In this document: positions 3,416-64,000 of the stretch, one piece after another | Position numbering within the stretch: the stretch's first letter is position 1 | Layout: each line of letters opens with the position of its first letter | Translations under genes and position numbers: made by a program | The notes under the pieces: model-generated | The model's input: only the letters and a program-made list of their open reading frames with translations | The model's database searches: none | What the model was told of the DNA's origin: nothing | Source of the DNA: an uncultured Actinomycetes bacterium | GTDB lineage: Bacteria > Actinomycetota > Acidimicrobiia > Acidimicrobiales > Ilumatobacteraceae | Direction: 5' to 3' | NCBI GenBank assembly: GCA_963802395.1 | Contig: CAWDIP010000005.1 | Location: forward strand, 851,363-915,362 | Length of the DNA stretch: 64,000 nt

Positions 3416-3424
3416 CCGATCGGG

Positions 3425-5081: not shown

Positions 5082-5143
5082 AAGCCGGCAGCGCGGCGAC
5101 CCCGCCTGGTCGACCCGGGGAGCGGGTCGGTAGCCTCGCCTCG

Positions 5144-8480: not shown

Positions 8481-8503
8481 CGGCGTCATCCAACCGGGAC
8501 CCT

Positions 8504-8565: not shown

Positions 8566-8583
8566 TGGGTACGGTGCGGGGGG

Positions 8584-12822: not shown

Positions 12823-12831
12823 CAGGAATCC
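12774..12831 (+). repeat. copy B of the conserved ~57-nt intergenic element, immediately upstream of the alanine-racemase-fold gene
   Basis: CCCCCTTCTGATCGCGTCTTGACCGGCAGACGGGGGGCGACCGAACGCACCAGGAATCC. It ends about 15-25 nt before the gene start. Confidence 0.6.
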
Positions 12832-12845
12832 GGCTGGCGGCTAGC

Positions 12846-13815
12846 GTGCCGCGCCGATGGCCCTCGTGCTCACCGTGGAGCAGCCGGTGTGGTGGGATCA
12901 CGTCACTCGAGGTCGCCGAGCGGCTCGGCGACCGGCTCGTCCCCGTCATCAAGGGCAACGGCTACGGCCTCGGCCGGGCGACCTGGACGCGGTCGGTGGC
13001 CGAACTCGGGCTCGAGCAGGTCGCGTCGGAACGGTCGCACGAACTGCTCGACGTCACCGCGGCGACTCCGCCAGCTCGTCCTCACCCCAGCCTCGACGAC
13101 CCGATCGACGGTGTTCCCGACGACGCCGTGCTGACCGTCGGTTCGCGCTCCACAGCTCGAAGCCGCACGTGCTCATCGGCGGTCCGCTGGCGATCAAGCT
13201 GCGATCCTCGATGCAGCGCTACGGGGTCGCCGCCGACGAGCTCCCAACGATGCTCGATCGCGGTCCCTGCGGCTCGACCGCTTCGTACTCCACCTCCCCC
13301 TCGCCGGCACCGACGACGACCGCGTGGCCGAGATCGAGGCATGGCTCGCCCACCTCCCCGGCAGGTATCGACGCTCTCGGTGAGCCACCTCTCGATCGAC
13401 TCGTTCGAGGCGCTCGCCGCCCGCCACCCCCGACGGCGGTTCCGCAGCTCCGCATGGGCACCGCTCTGTGGCACGGCGACAAGTCGGCGTTCCACCTCGG
13501 GTGCCGAGTCGTCAACGAGGTACGGCCCGTCACCGACGGCGCCCGCGCCGGGTATCGGCAGGTTCCCGTGCCGGTCAGCGGCCACCTGGTGATGATCGGC
13601 GGCGGGCTCTGCCCACGGGCGTCAGCCCACTCCCCGACGGGCGAAGCCCCTTCCACTTCGATCACCAGCGACTCGAGCTCCTCGAAGGGCCCCACATGCA
13701 CACCTCGATCGCTCTCGTCCCCGAGGGCTGCGCCTGCCCGACGAGTCGGCGAGGTCGTCGACGTCCAGCGTCCGCTCACCCAGGTGCAGCCCGACCGATC
13801 GTGTGGCTCCGATGA
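12846..13815 (+). CDS. alanine racemase N-terminal-domain (fold-type III PLP) protein; at least 3 frame disruptions
   Basis: LVPVIKGNGYGLGRA is the PLP-lysine motif of the Ala_racemase_N family. Later fragments (HVLIGGPLAIKLRSSMQRYGV, LRLDRFVLHLPLAG, LSVSHLSIDSFEAL, MGTALWHGDKSAFHLGCRVVNEVRPVTDGARAGYRQVPVPVSGHLVMIGGG, DGRSPFHFDHQRLELLEGPHMHTSIALVP) lie in alternating frames. Confidence 0.55.
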
Positions 13816-13845
13816 ACGCGGCCGCCGACCTCGCCGAGCCCGGTC

Positions 13846-14967
13846 GTGCTTCCCGGATTCGACGTGGTCCGCGCCACCGCACTTCATCGGTGTCGTGGTG
13901 ATGAACTACCACGGCTACCTCAACGGCGGGAGCGGTCCGAACCCCGTCGTTCGCCGAGCGGGTGTTCGATCCGTTCGTCGGGCGTGCTGTCCACCCGCTT
14001 CGCCGCCACGTTCGTCACCGTCGCCGGTGTGGGCGTGGTGCTGCTCACGAACCGCTCACGCCGGTCGGGCGACGCCGAAGCCCGCCGCCGAGACCGGTGG
14101 CGGTTGATCCGGCGCGGCGCGTTCCTGCTCGCCCTCGGGTACGTGCTCGACTGGATCTGGGCAGGCACGATCCTGTTCTTCTACGGCGCCTACTTCATCG
14201 GTGGCGGCGCTGCTTTTCACCCTGCGGATCCGCTGGCTGGCCCTCATCGCATTCGTCAGTGCCATCGCGGCGTGGGGGGTGCAGTGGTGGTCGCTCGACC
14301 GGACCCTGAATGGTCACGACACGTGGTGGCTCATCTGGAGCGGCCGGGCATCGGGCGAGGCGGCCTCGATGCGAAGCCCTCGCGACGCCGTCTTCGACGT
14401 GTTCCTGCACGGCACCCATCCCGCTCTTCCCGTGGCTCACGTTCTTCTGCTGCGGAATGATCCTGGGCCGCCTGATCCCTCACCTCACCCGGTTTCGCCG
14501 CCCGCTCATCGTCGCCGGCGTGGGCGCGGTCGGCGTTGGTTACGCCGCGGCCACCCTCTTACGCCGGGCATACGAGTTCCCGACCTCGAACCTCGAGTTC
14601 CACCTCCAGGAGCTGTCGCACACCGACCCCTTCAGCCGACAGCCGCTGTACGTGCTGACCACGTTGGGTTCGTCGGTCGTGGCGACCCTCGGCATCGCCT
14701 GGCTCGCCGACCGCTACCCCACCTCGACACCGGTCGATGTGCTGCGCCGCTCCGGGCGGCTCACCTTCACGATCTACATCGCTCCACGTCCTGGTGTTCA
14801 GAGCAGTGGTCGACGTGATGGGTTGGGTCGGCCCGACCGGGCTCGACACCGCGCTGGCCTTCGCGCTGGTGGTGTTCGGGCTGGCGACGATCGCCGGCGC
14901 CTGGTGGCAACGCGTCCGTCGGGCTGGGCCCGGTGGAACGCGATCTACCGCCGAGTTCGGGGGCTGA
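13846..14967 (+). CDS. DUF418/DUF1624-family polytopic membrane protein; several frame disruptions
   Basis: The N-terminal GFDVVRATAL-IGVVVMNYHGYLNGG motif is followed by LSTRFAATFVTVAGVGVVLL, AFLLALGYVLDWIWAGTILFFYGAYFIGG, LTFFCCGMILGRL...LIVAGVGAVGVGYAAATLL, LTFTIYI and HVLVFRAVVDVMGWVGPTGLDTALAFALVVFGLATIAGAWW. These lie in 4 frames. Confidence 0.5.
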
Positions 14968-15014
14968 TCGCTCGCCGGCTCGACCCGCGCGGCAGCTCGA
15001 GCTCGGCCGGTGGT

Positions 15015-15981
15015 TCACTCCGAGAAGGTGTCGCACTGATCGCTGGAGCCGGTCTCGAACCCCCGACGGAACCAGGTCACGCGCTGCTCGGAGGTGCCGT
15101 GGGTGAACGAGTCGGGGTCGACCCGGCCGCCCGACTGCTTCTGGATCCGATCGTCACCGACCGCCGCGGCGGCATTGATGGCCTCGTTGATCTCGTTGGC
15201 GTTGTCGAACTGGTCGCGGGCGTTGGCGTCGTGGGCCCACACCCCGGCGAGGCAATCGGCCTGGAGCTCGAGTCGCACCGACAAGGCGTTGGCCTGCGAC
15301 GGGTTGCGTTGCTCGGCCTTCGTCGGACCTGGTCGCTGATCCCGAGCAGGTTCTGGAGGTGGTGCCCGTACTCGTGGGCGACGATGTACTGCGCGGCGAG
15401 ATCGCCCGTGGCTCCGAACTGGTCCTGGAGCTGGACCAGGAAGTCGAGATCGAAGTACACCTTCGAGTCGGCCGGGCAGTAGAACGGGCCCATGTTGGCG
15501 ACGGCCGATCCGCAGCCGGTGGTCGGTCGCCGCCGCTGAAGAAGACGGTCTTGGCGAACTCGTACTGACGGCCGGCCGCCGTGAACGTGCGGTCCCAGAA
15601 CTCCTGCACGTCTCGCTGCCCGCCGCAGATGATCTGGGCGATCTCGGTGTCGCACGGTCCCGAGCCGGCGGCGCCGCTTCCGGCGGCAGCCTCGGCTCGG
15701 CGTCGGGCGCCAAGCCCGACCGATGGCACATCGGCGGCTCGACGGCCCCGGTGCCGGCGCCGCGCGAGCAACTTGGGCAGGAACGCCACGGCGAGCACGA
15801 GGATCAGACCGAGCAGCCCGCCGCCGGCCTTCATCGGGATCCCGAGGCCTCCGCCGCCACCGCCACCGCCGCCCGACCCATCGGGAACGGGAAGCCGACT
15901 GCCTCCTCCGCCCCCGCCGCCACCCTGGCCGCGGCGGTCTTCGATCATCGAGTCGTTCCCGGACTCGCGGATCTTCGTCAC
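15015..15981 (-). CDS. YpfJ-family putative neutral zinc metallopeptidase (Zn_peptidase_2); 2 frame disruptions
   Basis: A Gly-rich N-terminus plus TM segment (GGGGGGGGSRLP...GGGGGGGGGLGIPMKAGGGLLGLILVLAV). Then FYCPADSKVYFDLDFLVQLQDQFGATGDLAAQYIVAHEYGHHLQNLLGI (the HExxH-type HEYGHH zinc motif), QANALSVRLELQADCLAGVWAHDA, and the C-terminal GDDRIQKQSGGRVDPDSFTHGTSEQRVTWFRRGFETGSSDQCDTF. Confidence 0.7.
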
Positions 15982-16023
15982 GTGTGCTCCGTTCCTGGGG
16001 CGAATAGCTGGGTCGACGGATGG

Positions 16024-17488
16024 TCAGATGGCGACGGCAACGTACTTGGTGACCAGGTACTCGTCGATACCGAACCGGCCACCTTCGCGACCGTACCCGG
16101 AGTGCTTGACCCCGCCGAAGGGCACGTTGGCGGCCGAGATCATGCCGGTGTTCATGCCCGATGATGCCGTGCTCCAGACCCTCGGCGACCCGGAAGAGGC
16201 GCGGCGTGGTCGCGGGTGTGGGCGTAGGCGGCCAGTCCGAACGGGGTCGAGTTGGCCATGCGCGAGCGCCTCGTCCTCGGTGTCGAACACGGTGAGCCCG
16301 AGCACCGGACCGAACGTCTCCTCCTGGGCGATGCGCATCGGTGGCGTCGATCCCGGTGAGCACCGTCGGGTCGAAGAAGTTGCCGCCGCTCGTAACTCGC
16401 CGCCCGTCAGCCGAGTGCCACCGACGACGCAGCGCGGCGCCCTTGGCGACGGCGTCGCTGCACGTGTCCTTCGGCCTTGGCCAGGCGCGTCGGCATCGAT
16501 CAGCGGGCCGACCATCACGCCCGGCGGTGAGCCCGTTGCCGACCGAGAGCGCCGGCCACCTTGGCCGCGATCCGGGCGGTGAACTCCTCGGCGATCCCCC
16601 GCTGCACGTAGACCCGGTTCGTGCACACGCAGGTCTGGCCGGCGTTGCGGAACTTGCAGGCGATGACCTGATCGACCGCGATGTCGAGATCGGCGTCGTC
16701 GAAGACGAGGTACGGCGCATGTCCGCCGAGCTCGAGCGACAAGCGCACGACCTGCTCGGCGGAGGCCTTGATCAGCAGCCGCCCGACCTCGGTCGACCCG
16801 GTGAAGCTGACCTTGCGCACCCGACCGTCGGTGAACAGGGTGTCGGAGACCTCGGCGGCCCGGTCGGAGGTGACCACGCCGAGCACGCCGGCCGGAAGCC
16901 CGGCATCGAGCAGGGCCTGGGCGACCGCCAACGCGGTGAGCGGGGTCGACTCCGCCGGCTTGATCACCATCGTGCAGCCAGCGGCCAGCGCCGGGGCGAT
17001 CTTGCGGGCCAGCATCGCCGCGGGGAAGTTCCACGGCGTGATGGCAGCGGTCACGCCGATGGGCTGGCGCATCACGAGCACCCGATGGTCGGGGCGCTGG
17101 GCCGGGACGATCATGCCTTCGATCCGCTCGGCTTCTCCGGCGAACCACTCGAAGAAGCTCGCCGAGTACTCGACTTCTCCTTTGGCCTCGGCCAGCGGCT
17201 TGCCCTGCTCGGCCGGTGAGCGTGCGACCGATCTCGTCGGCCCGCTCCCGCAGCAACGCTGCGGTCCGCAGCAGCAGCCGGGCCCGTTCCCGAGCGACCG
17301 TTGCCCGCCAAGCCGGGAAGCGCAGCCGCGGCCGCGTCGATCACGGCTGTGGTGTCGACGTGCTCCTGCGTCGGCGACCGAGGCGATGACCTCGCCGGTG
17401 GCCGGATTGGTGACGGGTATGTCTCGCCGCTCTGGGCGGCGACCCACGCCCCGTCGAGCAGGATCGTTGCGGGGCCGGGTGCACTCAT
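16024..17488 (-). CDS. NAD(P)+-dependent aldehyde dehydrogenase (succinate-semialdehyde dehydrogenase GabD-like); about 3 frame disruptions
   Basis: ILLDGAWVAAQSGETYP / VTNPATGEVIASV / EWFAGEAERIEGMIVP...ITPWNFPAAMLARKIAPALAAGCTMVIKPAESTPLTALA...SFTGSTEVGRLL...LELGGHAPYLVFDDADLD...ACKFRNAGQTCVCTNRVYVQ. The C-terminal part is in another frame: QEETFGPV...NTGMISAANVPFGGVKHSGYGREGGRFGIDEYLVTKYVAV. Confidence 0.75.
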
Positions 17489-17545
17489 GCCCGGGAGGGT
17501 ACCCGGCGGGCGCGTGTCGCCCGAACGATCAACGATCCGGAACGA

Positions 17546-18667
17546 TCAGCGTCCGGCGACGAGATCGTCGAGGTGCGTCCCGAGGGCACGGCCCGCAGCC
17601 GCGTCGGTGCACCAGGATTCGCCGAACACCCGCGCCCCCTCGTTCAACCGCGTCCTGAGTGCCTCATCGGTCCACATCGCCTCGATCGCCGTCGCCAGAC
17701 CGACCTCGTCGCCCGGGGAGTGAACGAGTGCGTTCACGTCGGGGATGATGTAGTCCTCGACACCGGGTCGCATGGTGGACACGAGCGCCCGGCCGTGTCG
17801 GTAGGCCTCGACCATCGTCACGAGACCGGCGTTGGCTCCACCGGTGGTGAGCGGCACGACGTTGACGCGGGCCCGGCGCACCAGACGGTGGATGTCGTCC
17901 TTGGGCAGCTGATCCAGGATCACGACCGACTTCGGCGGCGTCAGCCCGCTCAGCACGCGGGGTCCGGCGAGCACCAGGGTGCGGTACCCGAGCCGATCGA
18001 TGGCCTTGAAGAACGTGCCGTAGTCGCGGAAGCCCGAACCCGTTGCGAACACGAACGGCTCGTCGTCGTCGATCTCGTCCGTGGCAACTCCGCCGCCGTA
18101 CTGGAGCGGCGCGAACCGGAAGCGCTCGGCCGGCAGATCGAGCCGATCGCTGTAGAGCCCGATCTCGCGGGTGGAGTGGACGATGAATCGGTCGACAGCG
18201 CGCAGGCTCGTGCGGGCCTGCAGCAGCCGTCCGCCCTCGCCGAGCTCGGTGTTGAAGAACCACGAGAGCAACGGAACGTCGCGTCGGCTGAGCCGCTTCT
18301 GCACGGCAACCGTGGCGGCCAGCTGCGGGAACACCGTGACGATGCCCCCTTCGGTGGCGGCCAGAGCTCGCCGCCCTTGCCGGGCGTACTGGACCCACTC
18401 ACCGGGGCCCGAGACCGGGCGCTTGCGCTGGTGCCAGCTGCGTTCCTGGCCGACGCGAGGCACTTTGGTGAACCGATGACCGTCGCCCGGCACGAAGTCG
18501 GTCAGCCAACGATCGTGAGCGGTCTCGAAGAACGGCGCGGCGATCGCCCAATGGTGCACCGGCGTCGCCGAGCTGTTCGTCACGTCGCTCCTGGTCGTCA
18601 TGCGAGTGAGCACGAAGCCGACCGTACTGTCAGCCAACGCGGCCATGACTTGGGCGGATCGGACCAA
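17546..18667 (-). CDS. GT-B fold glycosyltransferase (family 1/4-like)
   Basis: Intact 373-aa ORF. The C-terminal domain FATGSGFRDYGTFFKAIDRLGYRTLVLAGP...VNVVPLTTGGANAGLVTMVEAYRHGRALVST is typical of GT4-type retaining glycosyltransferases. Confidence 0.65.
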   Translation of the reverse strand: MVRSAQVMAALADSTVGFVLTRMTTRSDVTNSSATPVHHWAIAAPFFETAHDRWLTDFVPGDGHRFTKVPRVGQERSWHQRKRPVSGPGEWVQYARQGRRALAATEGGIVTVFPQLAATVAVQKRLSRRDVPLLSWFFNTELGEGGRLLQARTSLRAVDRFIVHSTREIGLYSDRLDLPAERFRFAPLQYGGGVATDEIDDDEPFVFATGSGFRDYGTFFKAIDRLGYRTLVLAGPRVLSGLTPPKSVVILDQLPKDDIHRLVRRARVNVVPLTTGGANAGLVTMVEAYRHGRALVSTMRPGVEDYIIPDVNALVHSPGDEVGLATAIEAMWTDEALRTRLNEGARVFGESWCTDAAAGRALGTHLDDLVAGR

Positions 18668-18713
18668 ATCGGGCGAATCTTCGCCGATCCGAGCACCGAG
18701 CGTACCGACTCAC

Positions 18714-20249
18714 TCACGGACGATGAGTGTAGCGACGAACCGCTGTCAGTTCCTGGCGGCGTAGTCGGCGATCAGGGCGTTGGCCTGGGCCGCTCCGGCG
18801 GCGAGGGCCGTGGCGGGGTCGGTGCCGGTGAAGACCGGTCGCGATCATCTGGGCGGCGACGGCCCGGACCTCGCGCAGCGGGCCGAGCACCGGCCCGACC
18901 GACGCCGGGTCGTCGGCCGCCCCCAGCAGTTGGTCGTAGGCGACCTTGAACCGAGGGTCATCGGTGAAGGTGACGGCGATCGGTTCGAGCTCGAGCGCGT
19001 CGGAACGCACCGGGACGTACCCGGTGGCCGCGGCGTTCGTCGACTGGCTCTGCGGCGCTGACGAGGAACTTCACGTAGTCCCACGCGCCGGCCGTGACGG
19101 CGTCGGGCTTGTCGGCCACGATCCACAGCGAGTTGCCGCCGACGAGCGCGCCGGGGTCGCCGCCGGGCCCGGGCATGGGGCCGATGCCCAGATCGTCGAG
19201 CCCGATGCTGCGGGAACAGCCCGCCGCCGAGCGACGTCGAGCACCTGGCCGAGCGCCGCCGACGTCCCGATCGTCATCGCCGCCGGGTCGGCGGCTGGCC
19301 AGTTTCAGGAAGTTGTCCTGCCCGCTGGCGTTGTCGCCGACGTTGACCGCCAGCCCGTCGTTGATCATCTGCTGCAGGAACGTCAGCAACTCGAGACCCG
19401 GCCGGGCTGTCGAACAGCACCGCGGTCGCCGGCGCGCATGCGTCCGTTGTCGTTGTCGGCGTACAGCTCGCCGGCCTTGGCGAACCACTGCTCGAGGAAC
19501 CAGCCGCCACCCGAGTCGGCACCCGGAATCGAGCGCGATGCCGTAGGTGGCGGCGCCGCGAGTCGACGATCGCCTGGCTCGCCGCCCGCACCTCCTCGAG
19601 GCTCACCGGCGGGTCGTCGGGGTCGAGCCCGGCCGCCGCGAAGAACTTCGGGTGGAGGTAGAACAGCACCGGGTCGCTGACGTTGAACGGCATCGCCCAG
19701 CTGATGCCCTCGGTGGTGTACGCGCTGAGGGCTCGGGGCAGGAAGTTCGACGGGTCGTAGCCGTCGGCTTCGACGCACGCCTGCACCGGGACTGTCGACT
19801 CGGTGTCGCGGATGCTCTGCACCATGTACTCGGGGAACTGCACCAGGTCGGGGCGGGCCTCCTGGCTCGGCTGGCAGGTACTTCTCGATCGTCTGCTCGT
19901 AGCCGCCCTGGTTCTGCAGGGCCACCCGCACCTTGGCCTGCGCTGGCGTTGTAGGCGTCGGTGAGGTCAGCGAGCGTCGTCTCGCAGCACGCCGTTGAGG
20001 CCGTGCCAGAACGTGACCTCGACCGGCGCCGGTCGCGGCGGCGAGGGCGTCGACCGGGCACGGCGGGAGTTGGTCGAGCGGCGTGGTGGTCGTGGTGGGC
20101 GGCACGGTGGTGGCGCCGGGCACCGTGGTCTGGCCGGGCACGGTGACTGGCGGGAACGGTGGTGGCACCGGCTCGTTGCCCGCGTTGAGGATCGACTCGC
20201 CGTTGCCGCACGCCGCAGCCAGCGACGCGTCAGCAACGAGCTGCCGCAC
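18714..20249 (-). CDS. carbohydrate ABC transporter substrate-binding lipoprotein (family-1 SBP) with Pro/Thr-rich linker; multiple frame disruptions
   Basis: A lipobox-like N-terminus (LVADASLAAACGNGES), then a PT-rich linker and VEVTFWHGLNG. Further fragments are AQAKVRVALQNQGGYEQTIEKY, ISWAMPFNVSDPVLFYLHPKFFAAAGLDPDDPPVSLEEV, GGNSLWIVADKPDAVTAGAWDYVKFL, and the C-terminal PIAVTFTDDPRFKVAYDQLLGAADDPASV. Confidence 0.6.
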
Positions 20250-20260
20250 CGCAGCGCGGT

Positions 20261-21102
20261 CGCCGGTTCATCCCTTCACCGCTCCGGCGGTGAGGCCCCG
20301 CACGAGTTGGCGCTGGAACACCATCAGCACCAGGAAGATCGGCACCGCGGCGATGACCGTGCCGGCCCACACCAGGTTCGGCCGGTCGAGGGCGGACGAC
20401 CTGCAGGAGCTTCAGCCCGGTCTGCACCGTGTTCATGTCGTTCTCGGTCGTCACGAGCGACGGCCACAGGTACTGGTTCCAGCTCGAGAGGAACGAGAAC
20501 AGGCCGAGGGCGCCGAGCGTCGGGCGGACGAGCGGCACGGCGACCTCACGCAGGAACCCGAAGTGCCCGAGGCCATCCATCACCGCGGCTTCCCGGAGAT
20601 CCTTCGGCAGCTGCAGGAACACCTGGCGCAGCAGGAACGTGCCGAACGCGGTGGCGAGGAACGGCGCGGCGAGGCCCTGGTAGGTGTTGAGCCAGCCGAG
20701 CGAGTCGACGGTACGCCGGTTGGCGACGAGCGTGGCCTCGAGCGGGACGAGCAGGGTCGACGAGGAACACGCCGAACAGCAGGCCTCGGCCCGGAACTTC
20801 AGGAACGCGAACGCGTAGGCGGACAGCACCGAGGTGACCAGCTGGCCACGGTGACGATGACGGCGACGACGCCGGAGTTGAACAGGTAGCGACCGAGGCG
20901 GCCTTCGCGCCACGCGTCCTGCGGAACGTGCCGAGGTCGAACGAGTCGGGCACGAGCGGGCGCTGCAGCACCCGGTTGCCGGGCTTCAACGAGGCGATCA
21001 CCATCGTGTAGATCGGGAACAGCACGATGAACGCGACGACACAGCAGCAGCGCGTAGCGCACCGACGCGCCGCCACCCGCGCGGGAACGCGTCAATTGCC
21101 AT
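20261..21102 (-). CDS. carbohydrate ABC transporter permease (UgpE/MalG-like); frame-disrupted
   Basis: An EAA-loop region, VLSAYAFAFLKFR...LVPLEATLVANRRTVDSLGWLNTYQGLAAPFLATAFGTFLLRQVFLQLPKDLREAAVMDG...LSSWNQYLWPSLV. The C-terminus AGTVIAAVPIFLVLMVFQRQLVRGLTAGAVKG is in another frame, and the N-terminus VVAFIVLFPIYTMVIASLKPGN is in a third. Confidence 0.65.
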
Positions 21103-21999
21103 AGTGCACCCGCTTCTCGACGCCCGCGGAACTGCAGCGCCGACAGCACCAGCAGCACGAGGAACAGCAGCACCGCGGCGGCCGATTGCAGGCCGTCGTT
21201 GTTGCGGATGACCGACTCCCGGCCGTAGATCGAGGTAGGTCAGGCTGGTGGTCGAGTTCTGCGGGGCCGGGCCGCCGTCGGTGAGCAGATCGAACTCGCC
21301 GTAGGCCTGGAAGGCCCGACTGGTGAGCACCACGGTCGGCGAACAACAGGGTGGGGGCGAGCATCGGCACGGTGACGTTGGTGAACCGCCGCCAGCCGCC
21401 GGCCCCGTCGACGAACGCGCTCTCGTAGAGCTCCTTGGGCACGCCCTGCAGCCCGGCCGTCACCACGATGAACGTGAAGCCGAGGTTGGCCCAGATGAAG
21501 CTGATCGCCGGTGGCGGTGAGCGCCGTGCCCGGGTCACGCAGGAGGCCGGGCTGCTTGATCACCGGGAAGAGGTCGCGTCAGCCAGCCGATGCTCGGCAG
21601 CACCCCGACGCTCGGCTGCAGGAGGAAGAACCACATCAGCGAGGCCACCGCCACCGACGTGGCGACGGTCGAGGAGAAGATCGTGCGGAAGATGCCGATG
21701 CCTCGGACGTAGCGGTCGGCGAGCACGGCGAGCGCCACGCCGAGGAAGAGCCCGCGTCGGCACGGTGATGCAGCGCGAACTTGACCGTGACCGCGAGGGC
21801 GTGCTGGAACTCGTCGGAGCGGAACACGTCGACGTACTGGTCCCAGCCGTTCGATCGGCAGTTCTTGCCGGCGTTGTCGCACCGCATGGTGGCCGATCCA
21901 CACCGACCGCGCCGAGCGGGTAGAGCACGAAGGGCCGAGCACGAGCAGCGACGGCCCGAGCAGCGCCAGCGCCAGCGACGCCGCTCGTTGCGGCGCGCT

Positions 22000-22003
<4 letters not shown>
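21092..22003 (-). CDS. carbohydrate ABC transporter permease (UgpA/MalF-like); frame-disrupted
   Basis: N-terminus MKRAAT...STMRCDNAGKNCRSNGWDQYVDVFRSDEFQHALAVTVKFAL. Central part FIWANLGFTFIVVTAGLQGVPKELYESAFVDGAGGWRRFTNVTVPMLAPTLLF. C-terminus AFQAYGEFDLLTDGGPAPQNSTTSLTYL. These are spread over 3 frames, and the ATG overlaps the ATPase stop. Confidence 0.6.
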
Positions 22004-23014
<1,011 letters not shown>

Positions 23015-23109
23015 CCTAGTGCGGTGCTCCCACCCGTTCTTCGAGTCGACACCGAGGCTTCACCCAGGCCGGTCGATCTCGACTCGTCGCGGAGCGTCGA
23101 CCTAGCCTG

Positions 23110-51785: not shown

Positions 51786-54333
51786 ATGCTGCTCCGGAAT
51801 GCTCGTGGGGGGCCAGGTGCGACGGTGCTGAGCATGACCGGCTGGAAAACGACGGTGACCGCCAGGTCTGAGCTCAAGAACCTGGCGAAGGCCGCCGAGC
51901 TCTACACGCGCGTTCGGGTACGGACCGACGGGACCAGTGTTGCCGGAGCGGGTGACCCCGACCCGATTCACATGTTCAAGCTGTTCAACCTGTCGGGCGT
52001 CGACTACAAGGGGCAACTGTCGAGCGGCTACGGCGCGGGCGGGTTCGGCGTCAACGTCACGACCGGAATCGATCTCGGTTCGGTTCTCGGCCCTGGTCTC
52101 ATCACCCTCAAAGCGATCATCAAGGGCGGCGGAGTTCGAGCGGATCACACGCTGCTCGTCTGCACCCGATTCCCCATGGCGCTGTACGAGAACTCGATCA
52201 CGAGCCTCGCACTTCCGCCCGGCGTGCCGCGCTGGAGAACTTCGAAACCGCTCGTCCTCGCCGTGCTGCATGGTGTCGCGTGGCAGGGAACGCTCGAGAC
52301 GAACGCGACCGCGGCCATCGGGGTTCCCGATGCCATCCAGACCGACGAGTTCGGACTCGGCATCGCTGCCGAGGCATCGGCCACGGCCATCGGCGACGTC
52401 CGCATCGTCGCGCTGGTCGACCGTAACGCCCGCGTCTTCGACGAGCGCCCGGGCTCCAGCCGTGTCGTCACCGCAGGAGCGGGCGCCGCCACGGCCTACG
52501 ACGGCAGCCTCGCCGAAGCCGTCGACTTCGCCCTCATCGGCGATCTCAAACAACGTGTGGCCCGCTGGATCATCGCGAGTTGGGCGGAGCGAGACTTCAA
52601 CCATCGCACACCCATCGTCATCGAGCTCCTCGTCGTCATCGAGCTCCTCGTCGTCATCGAGCTCCTCCTCGTCGAGCGGGTCGGCGCGGATGCAGCGCAT
52701 CCGCAGAGATCTTGCGGAGTTCGGCATCGGCTCCGACACCGACCCGGAGACGAACGCGGGGGATATGGACGCTGCGGAGTTCGAAGCCTTCGAGGTCGAT
52801 GACTCGCGTCCAGGCGAGACCGCGATCGATGAACCCGGAGCCGAGGAGCCAAGAACCGACGACGAGAGCACCTCGTTCCTCGGCGACCGCGCCAAGTCGT
52901 TGCTCGGAGACAAGGCCAAGTTGATCGAGTCCGAACCGGTCAAGGACGCCATCACCAAGGTCAAGGAGTGGTTTCGCTCGAGGAAGGGGACAGAGAAGCT
53001 GCAGTCGAGGCTCGACGACCTCAGGTCTGTCCTCGTACTCGAACAGGACTCCGCCGCCCACCTTGCCACGCTCGAGCAGTTCAGCCAGGCCCTGGGCGAG
53101 CGCGAGATGGCGAAGGGGAATGCGAAACGGGCGGCAAGAGCCGCAGGCGGATGGAACAACCTGGTCAAACGGATGAACAGCTCCACCGCCCCACCGGCCG
53201 TCCTACGACTCAGCTCGCGCACGTTCACCGGCAACCTTCATGGCTCCACCGGCATCGAGATCGGCAGCCTCAAGAAGCAGCTCGATCTCCACGGCGAGGG
53301 AGACCTCGACTACCTCCGCAAGTGGGTGAAGTACCGCTTCCAGATCCCGGCCGCCAAGGGCCGCGACCACCTGGTGATGACCCAGGACACCGTCGTCAAC
53401 CATCACCTGTTCACCGCCAAGGTTGCCGGAAAGGCATCGTTCGGCGACCGCTCCGTCAAGCCGCCGGTAGACGACGAGAAGGAGGCCGAGGCGCAGGACG
53501 AGGAGAAGGCAGAGGACGAGGAACAGGCGCCCGACAAGAAGGAGCTGGGATCGGGTGGGCGGTCCAAGACCTACGGCACCATCACCTATCGCTCGGCGAC
53601 CACGTACTGGCTGGCGTCGGACAAGTCGACACTGGCGTACCCGAATGGCAGCGGTGTGAGCTTCGGCCTTTCGATCAGCGCCGACCGCCTGCTCGACTAT
53701 GCCGCCTGGTGCGCGGCGCATCCCGACATCGGGCCCGATGACGACGCACTGAAGAAGACCGAGGGCTACCTCTCGTCGCAACTCCGGGTCGAGACCGCCT
53801 CGCTTCGCAAGTTCTTCGCCCGTTTTCAGTTCGAGGCAGGCCCGAAGCCCGACACGGACGGCGAGATTTCCGGCAAGCACCTACCGGAGGTCGCCCGGCC
53901 GCTGCTGGTGGAGTCCTCGTTCGCATTTCGTGAGACGACACCGCTCGTGATGCGCCCGGGAGCGCGACAGGAACCGGAGGATCTGTTCGAGAAGCATCAG
54001 CCGACCAGGGACCGTCTGGAGAAAACCGATCCAGGTGAGCTGGCGAACTCGTCGCTCCAGGCGCTGCGAATCCGTTACCCGCTCGGCGAAGCGGAGAACG
54101 CCACGAAGCTCTATTCGATCGGGATCAACTTCCTGATCGTCGCGTCGGTTGCGGCCGGGCGGGTCAGCGAGGTCGGCTCGGTCGGTTCGTTCGACCTCCA
54201 CACCGAGTTCTTCCCCGATCTGATCAAGGCGCCACCGGCCGACAAGACGGCGCGGCGCCAATGGGAACGCGACTACGTCTCGCAGTTCGAATTCGCGGTG
54301 CCACCGGTCGCATTGTTCGGCGACACGTCGTGA
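51786..54333 (+). CDS. large hypothetical protein A (~850 aa as reconstructed): N-terminal beta-rich domain, poly-Ser linker encoded by an 18-bp tandem repeat, acidic disordered region, C-terminal helical domain; no family recognised. A frame change lies inside the repeat.
   Basis: Frame 1 reads coherently 51786-52620 (...LIGDLKQRVARWIIASWAERDFNHRTPIV). Frame 2 reads coherently from the poly-Ser through 54333 (SSSSSSSSSSSSSSSSSGSARMQRIRRDLAEFGIGSDTDPE...FEFAVPPVALFGDTS). The start codon choice (ATG 51786 or 51834) is uncertain. There are no enzymatic or NTPase motifs. Confidence 0.5.
52613..52672. repeat. 18-bp tandem repeat CATCGAGCTCCTCGTCGT x3 (plus partial unit); encodes poly-Ser in one frame, IELLVV in another, and DDEEL on the opposite strand
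   Basis: Direct repetition seen at 52619-52636, 52637-52654 and 52655-52672 (the third unit has one substitution). It coincides with the frame switch in protein A. Confidence 0.7.
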
Positions 54334-57300
54334 GCTACGACACCATCGTCAGCGACGTGACCACGGCACTCGGTGACCTCGGTGCGGCCTTCGACGTCAC
54401 CGCCGACGGGTTGCGCCTGCGAGAACCCGTTGGTGGGGCCGACCTCGTCGCCCTCATCGGCGGCGCATTCGGTCGCCCGCAGCTCGTGCCGGACTGGATG
54501 CCGTCGGGGGTCCAGCTCGATGTCTTCGCGATCTCCAAGGCCGGTGAATCCGTCGACCTGCACGTCACCGCCAGCCACCAGGGAGTGTGGAAACCGTTCC
54601 CCGAGCTGACCGTGACGACCTGTTCGATCACCCTGGTCGAGGCGAACGGAGCGTTTGCGGGGATGGTTCGCGGCGCGGCGATGCTCGAAGATCTCGATCT
54701 CGAGCTCCTCGTTCAGTTCGAGGTGCCGTCGGAGGTCTTCCTCATCGAGCTGTCCTCGCCTGCCGATGCCGACCCGGCGGGCGCACAGAAGATGCTCGAC
54801 ACGCTCGGGATGGTGCACCACACGAGCCCTGACGGCGGACCGGTGCTGGTGGACTTGTCGCTCACCGGTTCGATCGCGCTCGGCACGTATGTGATCCATG
54901 TCGAGGCGGCAGATCTCCTGCAACTGCCGGCCTTGACGATCGCCCGGGTGATCGCTGACGCCCGTTTCGGGGATTCGACCAGTGTGTCGGTGTTCATCGA
55001 GGCCCTCGTCGGCGACGGGATCGACATCGAACTGCTCGGCGAGATCACCGCCGACGGATGGCTGCTGCGCGGCGCGTTGAGCCTGCCAGGCGAGGGTTTG
55101 AGCATCGGCGCGTTCGCCGCCTCGCTGGCCGGTGGTGACCCGCCTCGGCTCCCCGAGATGATCTCGTCGCTCGCCCTCGAGGAGGTCGACATCACCGTCG
55201 ACACCGCGGAGCACCTCGTCGCGTTCCACTGCCGGTTGACCTGGGAAGGCAACCCACTCGACGTCGCCATCGAGCACCGGCCCGACGGGTTCAGCGCTGT
55301 CGGCAAGCTGCATGTCGGCGACTGCGAGTTCCTCGTCGCCTTCGACTCCGATGAGAGCGGGGGCACGCTCGTCGGCGCGTTCTCGGCCGCCTCGGGCAGC
55401 CCGCTGTCGGTCGCTCACCTCGTCCAGGCGCTGGGCACCTCCGACCAGATTCCCGGCGCCGAGCAGCTGCACATCGAGATCGAGGACGCCGCCATCGCCC
55501 ATGGTTCCGTTGCGGACCAGCCGGGCGAATGGCTCCTCGGTGCCGACCTCGGGCTCGGCCTCGACCTCGCTGCGCTCCGGGGACTCCCGCTCGTCGGGGG
55601 AATGCTTCCGGCCGGCCAGTCGCTGAAACTGGCATTCGCTGTCGGGGCCAGGAGCGACTGGAGTGAGGCTCATCTCACCACCGTCACCGGACATCTCCCT
55701 GCGGCGTTCGCGGTGCCGAAGGTTGCCGACACCCTCACCTTTTCGGGCGTCCTCGACGTCGGCGGCGACCCGATCCACCTCGACTTCCCGGCGCCCCACG
55801 AGAGGGCGCTGCCCGCAGCGCAGCAGCCGCTCGCTGCTCGCGAGAAGCCCGCGACCGGCCCGGGCACCAGGGCCGGCAACGCCGACACGGCCGGCCCCGG
55901 GGCGCCGCGGCCCGCCACCGACTCGATCAGCTGGCATGCGGTCGACCGCTCGTTCGGTCCTGTGCACATCAGCCGCGTCGGGCTCGGCTGGGACGGTGAT
56001 GCGCAGGAGGTTGCCATCGCTCTCGACGGCTCGCTCGGCCTGGGTGGCCTCACGCTCTCGCTCCAAGGATTCGGCGCTCACTACCGCCTCGCCGAGCACG
56101 ACCTGCACGTGACGCTGTCCGGGCTCGGCCTCGATTTCACCAGCGGCCCGGTGGAGCTCTCCGGCGCGTTCCTGAACGTCGACGGCGACTTCGAGGGCAG
56201 GGTGCTGATCCGCACCGAGCAGGCGACCATCACTGCCCTCGGTGCGTTCACGACGATCGACGGTGCCCCGTCGATGTTCGTGTACGGGCTGCTCGACTAC
56301 CCGCTCGGCGGGCCGCCATGCTTCTTCGTGGAAGGCCTCGCGGCGGGCTTCGCCTACAACCGTGAGCTCCGCCCGCCGACGCTCGACGGGGTGCGAACCT
56401 TCCCACTGGTCGTCGACGCGATCGGCGCCGCCGGCGGGAACACGACGCCGACCGACCCCGGCGCCCAACTCGCGGCGCTGCACGAGTTCGTCCGTCCGTC
56501 GCTCGGCCAGAACTTCCTCGCCGTCGGGGTGAAGTTCAACTCGTTCAAGCTGATCGACAGCTTCCTGCTGCTCGTCGTCAGCTTCGGGAACACGCCCCAG
56601 ATCGATCTCTTCGGCTCGTGCACCTACCAGTCGCCCCCTGGCGAACTGGCAGAAGGTACGCCGGCGCTCGTCCACGTCGGTCTCGACTTCGTCGGGCATC
56701 TGCCAGTGGAAACCGGTGAGCTGCAGATCGAAGCCAAGCTGACCAACGGCTCATACGTTTTCGACCCGAAGTGCGTCATCAGCGGCGGATTCGCGTTCTA
56801 CAGCTGGTTCAAGGGTGAGTACGCCGGCAGTTTCGTGCTCTCCATCGGCGGCTATCACCCGACGATCCACCCTGAGACGCGAACACCGCGCTGGCCCATC
56901 GTCCAGCCGCTCACCCTGCGGTACAACCTGAGCGACGAAGTGTCGATCACCGGCAGCGTGTACCTCGCCCTCGCCCCCTCGATGATCATGGCCGGGTGCG
57001 CGGTCAACGCCACCGCCAGCATCGGTTCGGTCGAAGCGGGCTTCTCGATGAGCCTCGATTTCCTCGTGATCGTGGGAGCCGTACCACTACTCGATCGACG
57101 CCCACCTCGACATCTACGCGCGCTGGAAGTGCTTCAGCACCCACGCTTCGGCGACCCTGTCGATCAACGGCCCAGAACTCGCCGGGTACGCGCGGGTGAG
57201 CTGGAGCGTGTTCGACTTCGACATCCATTTCGGCACCTCGAGGAACAACGGTCCGACGCCGATCCCGTGGGACGGCGAACGCGGCTTCCAGCCGAAGTTC

Positions 57301-57930
57301 CTCCCCGACCCAACTGCGATCCATTCGACTCGCTCCGTCAGCGGGATGGTTTCGATGCTGGTGCCGGACGGGTCGTCGGGCACTTGGTGGGTGATCAATC
57401 CGTCGGAGTTCGCGATGGAGGTGTCCACCGCGATTCCCGCCGGGCGGTGCACGTTCGGCGACACGTGCATGACCAGCGATCGTGACCCGATCGGGATCGC
57501 CCCGATGAACCGGCTCGACGGGGTGACCTCAGAGCTGCGCGTCGCGGTCCAACGCCGCATCGAGGCGACGTGGCGAGATGTCTCCGACGAGTTCAGCACC
57601 ACTGCCGTTCACAGCCGCTTCCCGTCGGCCCTCTGGGGCACGACGTTTCAACCCACGCTCGATCAAGTCGGCGACACCGTCTCGGCAATCGGGGGCCTGA
57701 TGATCGCTCTCGGCCAGGGGATGCACGTCCAACGTGGCAATGCCGAGCCTCGGGGGATTGCCGGCTTCGCCGACGGCAACGTGATCGACCTCCCGCGCCA
57801 ACCGTGGCCCGACGTCGGCGATTGGGCACTCCCCGGTGACGTCTCCGGAGTGCCGTGGTTCAGCGACCACCTCGGCGATCTCGGGTTTTCCGCCGCGCGA
57901 TCTGTCGGTCGGTCCCACGTTCGGCGATGA
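54330..57930 (+). CDS. large hypothetical protein B (~1200 aa; Gly/Leu-rich DLGLG-type repeats, beta-rich); one frame disruption near 57065-57085; no family recognised
   Basis: GTG 54330 overlaps the TGA of protein A (GTGA). A coherent ORF runs to ~57070, where the translation degenerates into Arg-rich junk. A coherent continuation sits in the adjacent frame (EPYHYSIDAHLDIYARWKCFSTHASATLSINGPELAGYARVSWSVFDFDIHFGTS...) through 57930. Confidence 0.55.
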
Positions 57931-57978
57931 CATCCCGTTCGAGCGTCCGGGACTCGACAACCAGGGGCAAGGCTGCTG

Positions 57979-59908
57979 ATGCCGGACGAGGACACGCCTG
58001 CACCGACGAGTTCGCTGGCCCCGCCGATGGGCCCCGACGACGTCATCCGCTTCCACGCGAGCCATCGTCCGCAGCTGCTCGACGGCGATTACCGGGTGAT
58101 GGTCGTCCACCTGCTCAGCGAAACGGCCCGGGACCCGCAAGGCGACAACGCCAGGGATGTGACCACCGAGCATCGCTTTCCCCAGGCGACCGGGGCCGAG
58201 ATCGACGGCTTCGGCGACGCTGATGTCGGCCAACACTTCTGCGTCGCCGGCCCACGGTTCAGCCTGCAACCGTCGGAGGTCCACTCCGTGTACCCCCCGC
58301 CGGGCACGAGCGGCGATTTCAGCAACACGTTTCCGCACGTCGTGTTGACCAGACCGACCTTGCCGTGGGAGCGCACCGCTACCTACCGGGCCGAACCCGA
58401 TCCTTCCCAGCGTGACGACACCGGCGCACCGTGGTTGGCGGTGCTGCTGTTGGAGGACGGCGAGATTGCCGAACCGGCCAATCGGATCACCGTCCATCAG
58501 ATCACCGTCGGCGACTTCTTCACCGGGGCGGCCGGAATTGCGCCGCCGCTGATCAGGCCGGCAACGTCGGATGACCTCGCCGATCCGATCCGGGTACTGG
58601 ACATCAACCTCGGCTTGATGTCCAGCCTGCTGGTCCCTGCCGCCATCCCGTGGCTCACCCATGTCCGAACGATCGGGCCGGCGCATGACGCCGCCGATCG
58701 CGACGTCGAGTCGGCCACCGTCGTCGCCAACCGGATGATCCGGCCCGGACGCCGCTACGAGGCGCATCTCGTGTCGATCGAGGAGTGGATCGAGGACGAC
58801 CTCTGGCGGCTCAGCGACCATGACCTGACGGTTCGGATGGTCAGCCTGCACAGCTGGACGTTCGGTTGCGACGATGGCCCGAGCTTCAAGACCGAGGTCG
58901 GCAACCTGAGGGCCCGGCGGATGTCGTTGGACAGCTCGAACAAGGGGCTGTCCGCGCCGTATCTCGACCGCGGCTTCGTGCCGCTGCGCCACGAGTTCCG
59001 CAATGGCGACCGGGCAGTGTCGTGGTACCGAAGCCCACTCTCGCCGTACGGGGCAGAGACGATCGACGTCGACGAATCGAATTGGTCGGCCGTGCGATCG
59101 TCCGACGCGCTGCGGCGGTTCGACCGGGCGTCGGGCATGTACGACGTCAGCTACTCCGCCGCCTGGGAGCTCGGCAGGCTTCTCGCCCTCCATGATCCAC
59201 TGATCGGGCTCCGCCTTCACCGCTGGAAGCGGGATCACGCCCGGCACGAGCAACGCACGTCGGTGCTCGGCGCCCACCGGGACCTGCTCCTCGCTCCCCA
59301 CGAGCCGGTCGAGCCGGTGCTCGATACCGCCCTGACGAACTGGTTCATCACGCAGCTGCACCGGCTCGGGTCAGTGCCCTACCGCTATCTGGTCCCCGAC
59401 GACGACCTGGTGCCGACCCGAGCAACTGCAGTTCTTCACGGTCGATCCGCTCTGGATCCGTTGTCTTGCCGACGGGGCGTTCAGCGTCGGACGGATCAGC
59501 CAGGCCGACGCCCAACGGGACGACCTCCTGGCGGAGCTCTTCCTCGCCCCAGCGTCGCAACTCCACGGATTCATCCTCCGATCGCGCATCCTCGTCGACT
59601 ACCCGGGATTGATGATCGACGCGACCGGGCCCGACGGGCTTCCCGCGGCGATCGCCCGCATCGCCCATCTCGCCCCCGGTCTGCTGATCGCACTCTACGA
59701 ATCGTCGATCGGTCAAGTGTCACTGCACCTCCACCCCCAGGTGGTCCATTTCGAACTCCCCGACGTGGAGCTCTGCGGGTACACCAATTCTGATGGAGTC
59801 GTCGATATCAGTTCGCTCACCGCGGCCGCCGGCAGCACCGATTCCGGCGAGCTCGCCTGGGTGTTGCAGGCGCCGATGCACCGCGCCCGATTCCACGTGG
59901 AGGCATAG
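57979..59908 (+). CDS. large hypothetical protein C (~640 aa); one frame disruption near 59410; no family recognised
   Basis: ATG 57979 with an upstream AGGGG. Coherent to ...YRYLVPDDDLVP, then the continuation is in the adjacent frame (EQLQFFTVDPLWIRCLADGAFSVGRISQADAQRDDLLAELFLAPASQLHGFILRSRILVDYPGLMIDATGPDG...FHVEA) ending at TAG 59906-59908. Confidence 0.55.
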
Positions 59909-62900
59909 GTGACGACACACATCTTCGTCCCGCTGCGGGTCGATGCGCTGGCGACCAGCCGGCCGATCTCGGTCGTCAGCCCGACCGCCGACGTGACGTC
60001 GCTGCCCTGGTTCGACGGCACCCGTGATCGCTTCGCCGAGATCCCCAACGTCGCCAGTGCGATCAACACGGAACCCTTCGCCGACCATGCTTTCCGACTC
60101 GAATCAGGTGTCCACCTCCACTGGACACTCCCCGAAGGTCTCACCCGTGGCGCGGCCAGGCGCGCCTCGAACGACAACGACATCAGCGAGACGGACATGC
60201 CTGGCGGGGTCGACCTCGGCGACTTGACGATGCCACCCGCTCCGAACCGTTGGCTGGTCCGTCGCCGATCGCCGTCGCCGGCCGAGTGGTTGGTGGAGAG
60301 CGACTATGTCCACGATCGCCACGATGAGGCCGGGCGGGGCTCGATCGCCTTCCAGCTGATCGGTCAGCCGTCGACTTTGGCGAATGGGGAGTCACCGCCG
60401 AGTCCGCCGTTCGTCAGGATCGGCCGGGTCACCCCGCTCGACGACACGACGGTCGCCGCTGTTCTCGGCACGGCCGAGCAGGTGGGGGACGCGTACCTCC
60501 CGGACATCGATCGACCGCTCACCGCACTCGGGCATCACGATCCGACATTCGCTGCGCTCTACCCCAACTGTCATGGCGTGTTCGGGTTGCACGACGAACT
60601 GCACATCTCGTCGGCGAGCGGTGGGGGCGACATCACCTACGACGTGCTCGGCTGGTATGGCGGCGGCGCGCAGGATCCGCTGACCGCGTTCCTCGAGCGC
60701 GAGCTCTTCGTGCTCGACATCGACGCGGTCAAGGCAATCGTCAACCGTGAGCGAGCCACTCACCGACCGAAGCCCCTGCCGCCCCTTCCCGACGGCGACC
60801 CCACCGATGCCGAGTTCGGCGAAGCCCTGAGAATCCGGATCCGGCAGCGATTCGGGTGGCACCTCGACGACATCGCCACCATCGTGCCCGACCGACACGT
60901 GGCGCACCCTGTGCTTTGGCCAGGTCGTCGTCTCGCCGGAAGGATGGCTCCAAGCCCAGCCGAAGTCCGAGATCACCTCTGCCGCGGTCGCAGTCGGCAA
61001 CACGACGGCCGAAGCGGTGGCTGCGTTCCTGGCCGCCCGTGGCACCGACTCGGTCGACGCCGACGTCGAGCGACGGATCACCGCGCTCGAACTCGCCAAG
61101 CCGATCCTCCACGAACATCTCGACTTCGGAGCAAAGCTCGGAGCAGCCCACCACTCAGCCCGCTTCACGCCCGTGTCCGGACACCGTGTCTGGACCTTGC
61201 GGCCTCGCCCCGCCACCCCCGTCGTGGAACGGACGGGCTACGAGGAGGCCATCGGGCTGCCCGCCGATCTCGCACTCGATCTCGACCAGCTCAATGTCGA
61301 CCAGGCCCAGATGGACGCCTACGCCGACGATCTTCGCTCGCGCTGCCAGGAGTTGTTCGCTGACTGGCATCGGCTGATGGTCGCTACCTATCCGCCGCGT
61401 TCCACCGATCCGATCGGCATCGACCTCGCCGCCCTCGGCAACTACCTCGTGCGCAACCATCTCGAGCCACTCGAGGCCGATCGGGCGCACGTCGCCTCGC
61501 TCGCGGATCGGGTGGCGAACCGCTGGTGGCGGATCACCCGAGACCTCGACGCGTACAACGCGACCGCGCGAGCCAATCGATCAACTCGGGCTCGAGACAT
61601 GTCCCGGGCCCCGGTACTGGCGGCCGAACGATCCCGTCGTGCTGCTCGCCGGAGCCGATGCGGTACCGCCGACGCGCCACGGCGTCGATCTCGTCGACGG
61701 TGCGCTGCCATGTCGGTGCGGATCGATCTGGCCGGAGTTGCACGACCACGACACCTTGTACCCGTGGGACGACCCCGACCCGGCGTTCATGATCGCCCGA
61801 TCAGCGGTGACGACACCGCCATGGAACCCGCTCCTGATGGAATGGGAGGTCGAGGTCCTGGCCCTTGCAGAGGGGTGCAACGGACACGCCGGCGACCCGC
61901 GATTCGACCCCTCGCCATACCAACGGTCATTCATCACGACGAACTTCGACCTGCCCGTCGGTCAACCCGACCTTGCGCGCCGTGTCAGGTTCGGACTGGC
62001 GGCCAGTGGATTCGAGTATCTCTCCGGCCGTTCGATCCTCCACCCCGGACCGGTGAGACGACTCGCCGACCTGCTCCAGGCGGCCGACCCCGACAACGAG
62101 TTGCTCCTCGATCTCGAAGCACTCGCCGGCGCCGTTGCCCAACCGCTGGTCGGTTTCCACGAGGGACTGCTGATGCGCCGGGCGGAGCCGCAACTCGCCA
62201 TCGAGGACCCGCTCGGGTTCGCCGACAACCAGGCGCTCGCTGGCCGGGTTCGCGACGCGGTCGGTGACGTTCACCCGGACAGTCCGGTCGCCGGCGCCCC
62301 GTTCCACCCGATCCGCACCGGCGAGATGGTCATCGAACGCCTCCGGCTGATCGATTCGTTCGGCCAGACGCGCGAATGGCGTCCTGAGGCTGTGCTCGGC
62401 TCGTCTGCGATGGGAGGTAGTGCCGGGGGCGATCGGGTGAGCCTTCCGCCCCGCATCACCCAACCGGCCCGAGTGCACGTCCGATGGCTCGCAGCGGAGC
62501 ACGACGATGTGACGGTCAACGATCACCCGGCTACCACACCGATCTGCGGGTGGTTGCTCCCGAACCTGCTCGATGAAGCGATCGATGTCTATGACACCGC
62601 CGGCAGGTTCGTCGGACTGATCGACGGCGATGGTCGATGGCGGCCGGCACCCGGTCTGTTCGGCGCACCTCGGGGTCCTGACGAGATCGACAATCGGCAC
62701 CTGGCGGAGGTCGTGCGCTGGTTGCTCTCGACGATCCGCTCACCGCACCCCGAGCAGGAGGCGGCGCTCGGTCTCGAGTCGCCGGCAACACCCGACGTCG
62801 TGATCGGCGCTCTGATCGACCACATCGAGACCGCGCTCGACACCATCGAGCCACTGGACGGCGCCGGCCACCAGAGCCGGGCACTGCTGATCGGCCGACC

Positions 62901-63810
62901 GATCGCCGTGGTTCGCGCCCGACTGGATCTGCAGTTGCTCGGACGACCCGCGTGCGACCAATCGTGGGAGCATCTCCGCCATCGCTTGTTGGGCAGGCCG
63001 CCGAGCGATCACGGCTTCACCGAGGTCGAATTCGCGGTGCGGATCGGTGAACACCAACAGTCGAACGATGGCACGGTTGGCTATTGGGTGACCGACGGCG
63101 CCGGGCGACTCACCGGCCGGCACCTGCGTTTCACTCACGACGAAGGACCCCCGACCGCGATGCTCACGTTGGCGGGAGCCCCGATCGACCTCACCGTGCT
63201 GCTCGACCCGCGTGCGGTGATGCACGTGACGTCGGGCGTGCTGCCTACGACATCGATCGGGATTCCTCCCGCACTGTGGGCCCCGGCGCTCGATGGCCTG
63301 TCGGCGTCGTTCCTCTCGGCGCCGATCCTGATGCCTGCCGAGGAGATCGCCGTCCCACTGCCTCGCGAGCCGAGCTGCTCGTGGTCCTGGTCGCAACGGG
63401 TGGGCGGCCGCTGGATCGAGGTGGCTGACCGGCCGACGGTGGAGTACTCGGCGATGCTCGACGCCTTCCCGGAGCCAGGCAGGGCCCAAGCGGTGTGGCA
63501 GACTGCGCTGCGGACTCGAGTGCTCGAACCCGACCCGACCCACCCTGCTCGTGCGCTGTTGTCGCTCGACGCGTCGAACATGCCGAAGGGGTCGGGCGCC
63601 GACGGCCCGAAGCCCGCGACACTCGACGAGGACACGCTCCACGCGCTCCACCGCATCGCCACCTACATCCGCCCGGCGCTCATCGAGGCCACGTTTGGCA
63701 AGCCGGCCGTGATCCGCGAGGGTTGGCTGCAGCTACGCAGCACCTTCGCCGACGGCACCCGAACGCCGCCGCATGCCCAAACGGCCAACGACTCATCGGA
63801 GGGTTTGTGA
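59909..63810 (+). CDS. large hypothetical protein D (~1300 aa); frame disruptions near 60900-60935 and 61555-61570; no family recognised
   Basis: GTG 59909 follows the previous stop immediately, with GGAGG 5 nt upstream. There are three coherent frame segments (59909-~60920; ~60900-~61560 including AAFLAARGTDSVDADVERRITALELAKPIL; 61560-63810). No Walker or HExxH motifs. Confidence 0.55.
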
Positions 63811-64000
63811 TGACGAGCCCACTGGGTGGAGCACTGGAATTCGCGTTGGAGAACCGCGCTGGTCGGGCCGAGTTGAACCTCTCCGATGGGCCCCAATCGC
63901 TCGTGTTCGTGATCACCAACCGTTCGAGCGATTCGATCGCCACCCGGCCGGGCTCCACGCTCGTGGTCGGGTTCCGTGCCGGCACCCTGCGCAGCCCCCA
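63810..64000 (+). CDS. hypothetical protein E, 5' end only (truncated by window end)
   Basis: ATG 63810 overlaps the TGA of protein D (TGATG). MTSPLGGALEFALENRAGRAELNLSDGPQSLVFVITNRSSDSIATRPGSTLVVGFRAG reads coherently to the window edge. Confidence 0.4.
   Translation, partial: MTSPLGGALEFALENRAGRAELNLSDGPQSLVFVITNRSSDSIATRPGSTLVVGFRAGTLRSP

Follow-up and report, generated by a model that had tools for sequence, protein, structure and literature searches.

The DNA analysed here (the window, 64,000 nt) has a G+C content of 68%, which gives long ORFs in every frame, and ORF length is therefore no proof of a gene. Positions 51834-64000 carry a conserved operon that encodes very large proteins, with counterparts at positions 1-11732 of contig L002, an Acidimicrobiia MAG contig (GCA_043955495.1) on which the syntenic operon is intact, and at positions 564-10240 of contig L005. 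The order is protein A (~800 aa), a DUF6603 protein (~1200 aa), and then products of ~600, ~1250, and ~700 aa; on L002, gene A is followed by a DUF6603 gene of 1211 aa and by genes of 604, 1250, and 695 aa. Gene A and the DUF6603 gene share a 4-nt start/stop overlap (GTGA, 54330-54333), and the same overlap is seen on L002 (1729 versus 1732) and on L001 (2570 versus 2573). Apart from DUF6603, the operon proteins had no match in Pfam, NCBIfam, PADLOC, or PDB sequences; Rfam and the literature yielded nothing on function, and DUF6603 was not mentioned in the literature searched. The pair of DUF6603 and gene 3 recurs out to Microcystis, in which a gene unrelated to A lies upstream. The features of the operon are collected in Table 1.

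Table 1. Features of the DUF6603 operon in the window, with the evidence on which each was placed
Feature	Positions	Strand	Evidence
Gene A, ~833 codons, two-module protein, with a +1 frame break	51834..54333	+	Colinearity with P0002; relatives with both modules
A-N: N-module in frame 0 (position modulo 3 = 0), then start of the linker	51834..52613	+	GC3 phase; tblastn with L002 protein A to 52574; alignment
Likeliest interval of the single extra base	52575..52614	+	Array periodicity; L004 match; end of frame-0 conservation at 52574
Spurious frame-0 tail of the A-N ORF: IELLVV repeats, Arg-rich peptide, stop	52614..52802	+	ORF translation; codon log-odds
18-bp tandem repeat, 3.3 copies, in the inter-module linker	52615..52673	+	Tandem Repeats Finder; six-frame reading; P0002 model
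A-C: linker and C-module in frame 1	52615..54333	+	ORF translations; tblastn; database products
DUF6603 gene, start GTG 54330, one extra base within 57069-57072	54330..57930	+	Pfam PF20248; ortholog motif; tblastn
Gene 3, ~626 codons, no known family, extra base at ~59416	58027..59908	+	tblastn with L002 gene 3
Gene 4, ~1300 codons, no known family, two breaks	59909..63810	+	tblastn with L002 gene 4; frame tracker

Gene A, whose start we place at ATG 51834 from the alignment with P0002, changes reading frame part of the way along. In a GC3 frame plot the GC-rich third position changes phase, from 2 to 0, at ~52620-52700, a codon-usage frame tracker puts the switch at 52689/52690, and an intact ortholog aligned by tblastn runs in frame 0 to 52574 and in frame 1 from 52978. 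All three bear out the frame change that the original prediction had seen beside a tandem repeat; the switch is real in the sequence as given, and this rests on the position-specific GC signal. The N-module of the upstream part (A-N) is closed by a conserved GDLKQRVARWI at 52542-52574, and the upstream ORF then continues out of frame, through an Arg-rich stretch, as far as a stop at 52802. Over positions 52693-52760 the codon log-odds are -10.6 for frame 0 and +5.2 for frame 1. The 366-aa A-N ORF had no entry in the sequence collection searched. For the downstream part (A-C), two starts have been called: ATG 52690 (547 aa, Logan), which is the start originally suggested as one possibility and is present in the sequence, and ATG 52765 (522 aa, source record). 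The deposited record contains the break as well: P0001 (522 aa) and P0155 (a truncated DUF6603 product of 1051 aa) lie on the same 946,672-bp contig.

The tandem repeat at the switch has a period of 18 bp, and Tandem Repeats Finder reports 97% matches and no indels along it. Its unit, TCGTCATCGAGCTCCTCG, occurs three times in tandem versus 0.01 matches by chance; this is the CATCGAGCTCCTCGTCGT of the original prediction in another register, and the 3.3 copies agree with the three units and partial fourth described there. In the A-C frame (position modulo 3 = 1), the array encodes a run of 21 serines from 52615, as expected from the ~20 serines first reported, and this Ser21 is the sole poly-Ser run across the six frames of the window. 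In the A-N frame, the same DNA reads IVIELLVVIELLVVIELLLVE, i.e., (IELLVV)3. Within the repeat, GC3 is high in the A-N and A-C frames alike. The codon log-odds over the repeat favour frame 0 (+21.6 versus -2.1 for frame 1), which makes the poly-Ser reading insecure. The repeat is a linker segment that most probably encodes Ser21. Such a segment would be like the poly-Ser and other low-complexity linkers that join domains elsewhere, being a mixed-codon Ser run between two folded modules, placed where the ortholog is disordered and Ser/Asp-rich; it is unlike them in that its translation as serine hinges on the site of the extra base and is not secure. A-C holds two further short tandem repeats, both in frame and both in segments that P0002 lacks: one of period 24 and 2 copies at 52873-52921 (FLGDRAKSLLGDKAKL) and an acidic GACGAG/18-bp repeat at 53473-53530 (DEEKAEDEEQ).

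The relatives of protein A bear on whether A-N and A-C are one gene or two. When A-N, the Ser run, and A-C were joined in a corrected frame and used as the search query, the only matches were P0001, which is the source's own 522-aa A-C product, and P0002 (761 aa), whose residues 30-760 are colinear with residues 43-831 of the frame-corrected product. An exhaustive profile search widened the family to 230 relatives, typically of 650-870 aa. On a local re-scan, 113 of the best 150 relatives had both modules in one chain, and the single-module relatives were short fragments or long proteins in which the other module was simply undetected. P0002 and P0003, which are the nearest intact relatives, and likewise P0007 and P0015, are uninterrupted across the junction, where GDLKxRVAxWI is followed by a variable linker (Ser/Asp/Glu-rich in P0002). 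Gene A shares the hallmarks of this family, in that its two modules are colinear with a single gene and the DUF6603 gene lies immediately downstream. An equivalent of the 18-bp repeat is absent from the aligned relatives, and no closer relatives were found in the species-representative genomes or JGI metagenome contigs scanned. Since the relatives are single ORFs colinear with both modules, we read A-N and A-C as the halves of one ~833-codon gene; the alignments show a single-gene ancestry. The suggestion that A-N and A-C belong to one protein is thereby upheld, at ~830 aa, and the comparison of one ORF with two that had been proposed as a check returned one ORF across the junction in the intact relatives.

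The AlphaFold model of P0002 (pLDDT 76.7, pTM 0.76) consists of a beta-hairpin N-module with helices, a disordered segment, and a beta-rich C-module. The disordered segment (residues 247-313, pLDDT < 50) is the counterpart of the repeat region of the window. Both modules of the model contain beta-hairpins ~20 residues long. Foldseek returned no convincing solved relative of this fold; its sole matches were to outer-membrane beta-barrels, and we rejected these at TM-scores ≤ 0.14 and an rmsd near 30 Å.

Where the surplus base sits can be narrowed from both sides. The three copies of the unit are exactly periodic and free of indels, and the surplus base must therefore lie outside the array, either 5' of 52615 or 3' of 52673. 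Logan contig L004 (run ERR11593397), which was assembled independently, begins inside the repeat at 52638 and matches window positions 52638-56580 with 6 mismatches and no gaps, a comparison that reaches neither the candidate interval 52575-52614 nor any other break and in which L004 is possibly not error-independent of the window sequence. It reproduces the final 1.7 units of the array together with its 3' edge, and also the GGG at 52677-52679. This agreement from 52638 onward favours a break within 52575-52614 and, with it, the poly-Ser reading. The extra base most likely falls in that interval, in which GGG at 52582-52584 and CCC at 52611-52613 are the candidate runs, with A 52614 also possible. 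The six mismatches between L004 and the window (53966, 55077, 55111, 55207, 55222, and 56165) all lie in CGCG or GCGCG contexts, and in four of them the window has C where L004 has T. This suggests that one of the two data sets has a systematic error tied to this motif, perhaps related to methylation.

Gene A is not the only broken gene of the operon. In the DUF6603 gene, positions 1-370 of PF20248 are found in frame 0 (to 57068) and positions 372-460 from residue 2 of a frame-1 piece; orthologs have LDF-x-x-x-WEPYHY versus LDF-L-V-[ATCG]-WEPYHY in the window, i.e., four bases for one residue, and tblastn aligns query residues 1-919 and then 921-1136. In gene 3, residues 1-435 of the L002 ortholog align to 59415 in frame 1 and residues 436-601 from 59417 in frame 2, with LVP-[A]-PEQLQ in the window versus LVPPEHIQ in the ortholog. 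The L002 gene 4 product (1250 aa) gives three tblastn HSPs in three frames, with breaks near 60872 (frame 2 to frame 0) and near 61566 (frame 0 to frame 1) that the frame tracker puts at 60892 and 61568. By tblastn of the L002 proteins, every one of the five operon breaks goes from frame f to frame f+1, with that of gene A between 52574 and 52690, and two of the five are each pinned to a surplus of exactly one base. Identity to the L002 orthologs from one side of a break to the other is 45% then 39% for gene A, 52% then 42% for DUF6603, 44% then 48% for gene 3, and 48%, 50%, and 54% for the successive parts of gene 4. No independent, near-identical copy of the region of breaks 2-5 was found, and a frame-corrected chimera met only the source's truncated product. 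We also considered whether breaks 1, 2, and 4 have an '[A]TCG' insertion context in common, and set this aside as not significant (ATCG occurs about once per 100 nt).

Similar breaks are found far from the operon. To track frames across the window we used a Viterbi pass over a codon-usage model trained on the window's intact genes, which replaced a GC3-only six-frame scan that was unable to separate the strands. This tracker recovers all five operon breaks and, at 3.4-23 kb (3400-23100), ~34 more stop-free breaks on both strands, 23 of them insertion-like and 11 deletion-like; between 23 and 51 kb it finds essentially none. The whole window thus holds about 40 single-base frame breaks. The genes hit at 3.4-23 kb encode a MalK-like ATPase, two ABC permeases, a solute-binding protein, an aldehyde dehydrogenase, a beta-propeller protein, and a creatininase, and one permease gene has up to ~8 breaks. 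When the tracked segments are joined, they give coherent proteins with stops at the gene ends only. After frame correction, Pfam recovers Aldedh at 77-461 of 461 positions from 3 frames, Creatininase at 4-236 of 238 from 4 frames, SBP_bac_8 at 9-277 of 279 from 5 frames, and BPD_transp_1 at 4-174 of 184, versus 56-111 from the single-frame piece. Two permease breaks were pinned by homologs of 62-67% identity, one as a one-base deletion and the other as a GGG-to-GG homopolymer loss. A frame-corrected query from the transporter region found no near-identical independent copy.

Two further observations concern this part of the window. The homologs of positions 18800-21900 that scored best in the database against the frame-corrected transporter genes, all from ENA/NCBI MAGs (P0272-P0277), are odd fusion proteins of 589-905 aa, and the tail of P0276 looks out of frame and aligns with the window's own out-of-frame translation; errors of this kind seem to be common to related MAGs. 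A 1.47-kb segment at 10788-12253 has the highest G+C content of the window (~74%) and is non-coding according to the frame tracker. Rfam found nothing in it, and it may be a gene too damaged for tracking or truly non-coding.

We consider it very likely that gene A is one gene split by an artefact, namely a consensus or polishing error in a long-read MAG. The frame switch is then most likely not a biological feature, and the indels are, by inference, most likely assembly artefacts rather than mutations. The product of gene A would comprise a beta-hairpin-rich N-module, a disordered low-complexity linker, and a C-module, and one extra nucleotide just 5' of the repeat, within 52575-52614, would throw the rest of the gene into the +1 frame. 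Given such a shift, gene callers report two ORFs: A-N, which ends in nonsense sequence, and A-C. The extra base would be one of the ~40 indels of the window, five of them in this operon, and it is because the gene A break is one among so many that we put a sequence-quality artefact at the head of the explanations. After the breaks, GC3 is still high, internal stops are absent, and identity to orthologs is not falling; the breaks are many, and they lie in unrelated conserved genes along which conservation is continuous. Dozens of breaks in housekeeping genes that bring no stops, no loss of GC3, and no drop in identity are the signature of consensus indel errors, not of decay or recoding.

It is well documented that indels break up genes in long-read assemblies and MAGs (PMC12007338, PMC9262707). 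As in those cases, conserved genes here are cut by single-base indels into neighbouring ORFs that differ in frame, the indels are numerous within a region, some are homopolymeric (GGG to GG), conservation runs across the breaks, and related MAG proteins carry the same artefacts. The likeness is not complete. All five operon breaks are insertion-like, and at least two of them lie outside homopolymers, which is not the classic pattern of homopolymer deletion and speaks against an artefact; the breaks of the window are also patchy. Their absence from 23-51 kb calls for some local cause, for which low coverage or a mixture of strains are guesses. Low-complexity repeats are harder for consensus callers, and the adjacency of break and repeat is, on our estimate, a modest coincidence (a chance of ~6-8%, given a target of 140 nt and the density of breaks seen here).

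A real mutation, by which gene A and its operon were recently inactivated or split, with the halves made separately or not at all, is in our judgment unlikely. The break does stand in the deposited assembly, the five operon breaks are clustered in one accessory operon, a kind of locus that is often lost, and the surrounding sequence is otherwise reproducible according to L004; but comparable or denser breaks occur in housekeeping genes with amino-acid conservation intact and no internal stops, true decay should give more substitutions and stops than indels, and neither conservation nor GC3 drops downstream of any break. Relaxed selection past the lesion, which stops or a loss of GC3 or conservation would betray, is not seen. 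We regard as improbable the particular case of a recent +1 mutation at the edge of the repeat, which would give the N-module a hydrophobic tail of IELLVV repeats and have translation of the C-module start anew at ATG 52690. If the extra base were real, low-level rescue by +1 slippage at CCC-A would be possible, and similar lesions would run throughout the five-gene DUF6603 operon. It is very improbable that A-N and A-C evolved as overlapping genes that are translated separately, A-C from ATG 52690 or ATG 52765. That idea, put forward in the original prediction with ATG 52690 as the start, conflicts with the family architecture and reflects gene calls made on a broken sequence: gene callers did give products of 547 and 522 aa, and a few database relatives have one module only, but the latter are the fragments and long proteins with an undetected module described above, every close relative is fused, the A-N ORF ends with 63 out-of-frame residues, and the P0002 model (pTM 0.76) joins the modules by a disordered linker in one chain.

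The repeat itself invites two further readings, which together with evolved separate genes share a very small part of the probability. Contingency loci, as in Haemophilus and Neisseria, undergo phase variation by slipped-strand mispairing, and their repeats have unit lengths not divisible by 3 or are located in promoters. A contingency switch of that kind, in which copy number toggles between a fused and a split protein, was among the proposals made for this locus; we hold it to be extremely improbable. The resemblance is confined to a near-perfect tandem repeat in coding sequence that coincides with the frame change, for the unit of 18 bp is divisible by 3 and cannot toggle the frame. Eighteen base pairs are six codons, so that gain, loss, or collapse of a whole unit keeps the frame, and the 3-nt sub-periodicity of the unit is likewise frame-preserving. 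The array has no internal indel, four other operon breaks and ~34 elsewhere lie outside any repeat, and relatives have no equivalent repeat. Variation in copy number was not observed either, in a comparison where the one independent contig, L004, begins inside the array. The six-codon unit and the absence of internal indels also dispose of the related proposal that a slippage polymorphism in repeat length, or an assembly collapse of the repeat, caused the frame switch. CCC-N sites are prone to +1 slippage, and all five operon breaks are +1; yet the chance that a programmed +1 ribosomal frameshift, e.g., tRNA-Pro slippage at CCC-A (52611-52614), yields the full-length protein is close to nil. 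As in prfB-type frameshifting, a full-length product here needs a +1 change of frame, but, unlike prfB, the locus lacks a conserved shift site, an in-frame stop, and a hungry codon. The protein is encoded in a single frame in orthologs, which do not conserve the shift, the five sites have no common slippery motif, stop, or rare-codon context, and dozens of like breaks, deletion-type ones included, occur in unrelated housekeeping genes.

On the reading that we prefer, a split of one gene by a consensus error, the finding is in the first place a caution: a frame switch linked to a repeat is not to be read here as phase variation or as overlapping genes. The genes of this record need frame-aware handling, and the truncated annotations include A-N, A-C, the DUF6603 product of 1051 aa, and the pieces into which genes 3 and 4 are divided. 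Once corrected, the locus is a conserved and wholly uncharacterised operon of very large proteins, and this is the only part that may be worth study in its own right.
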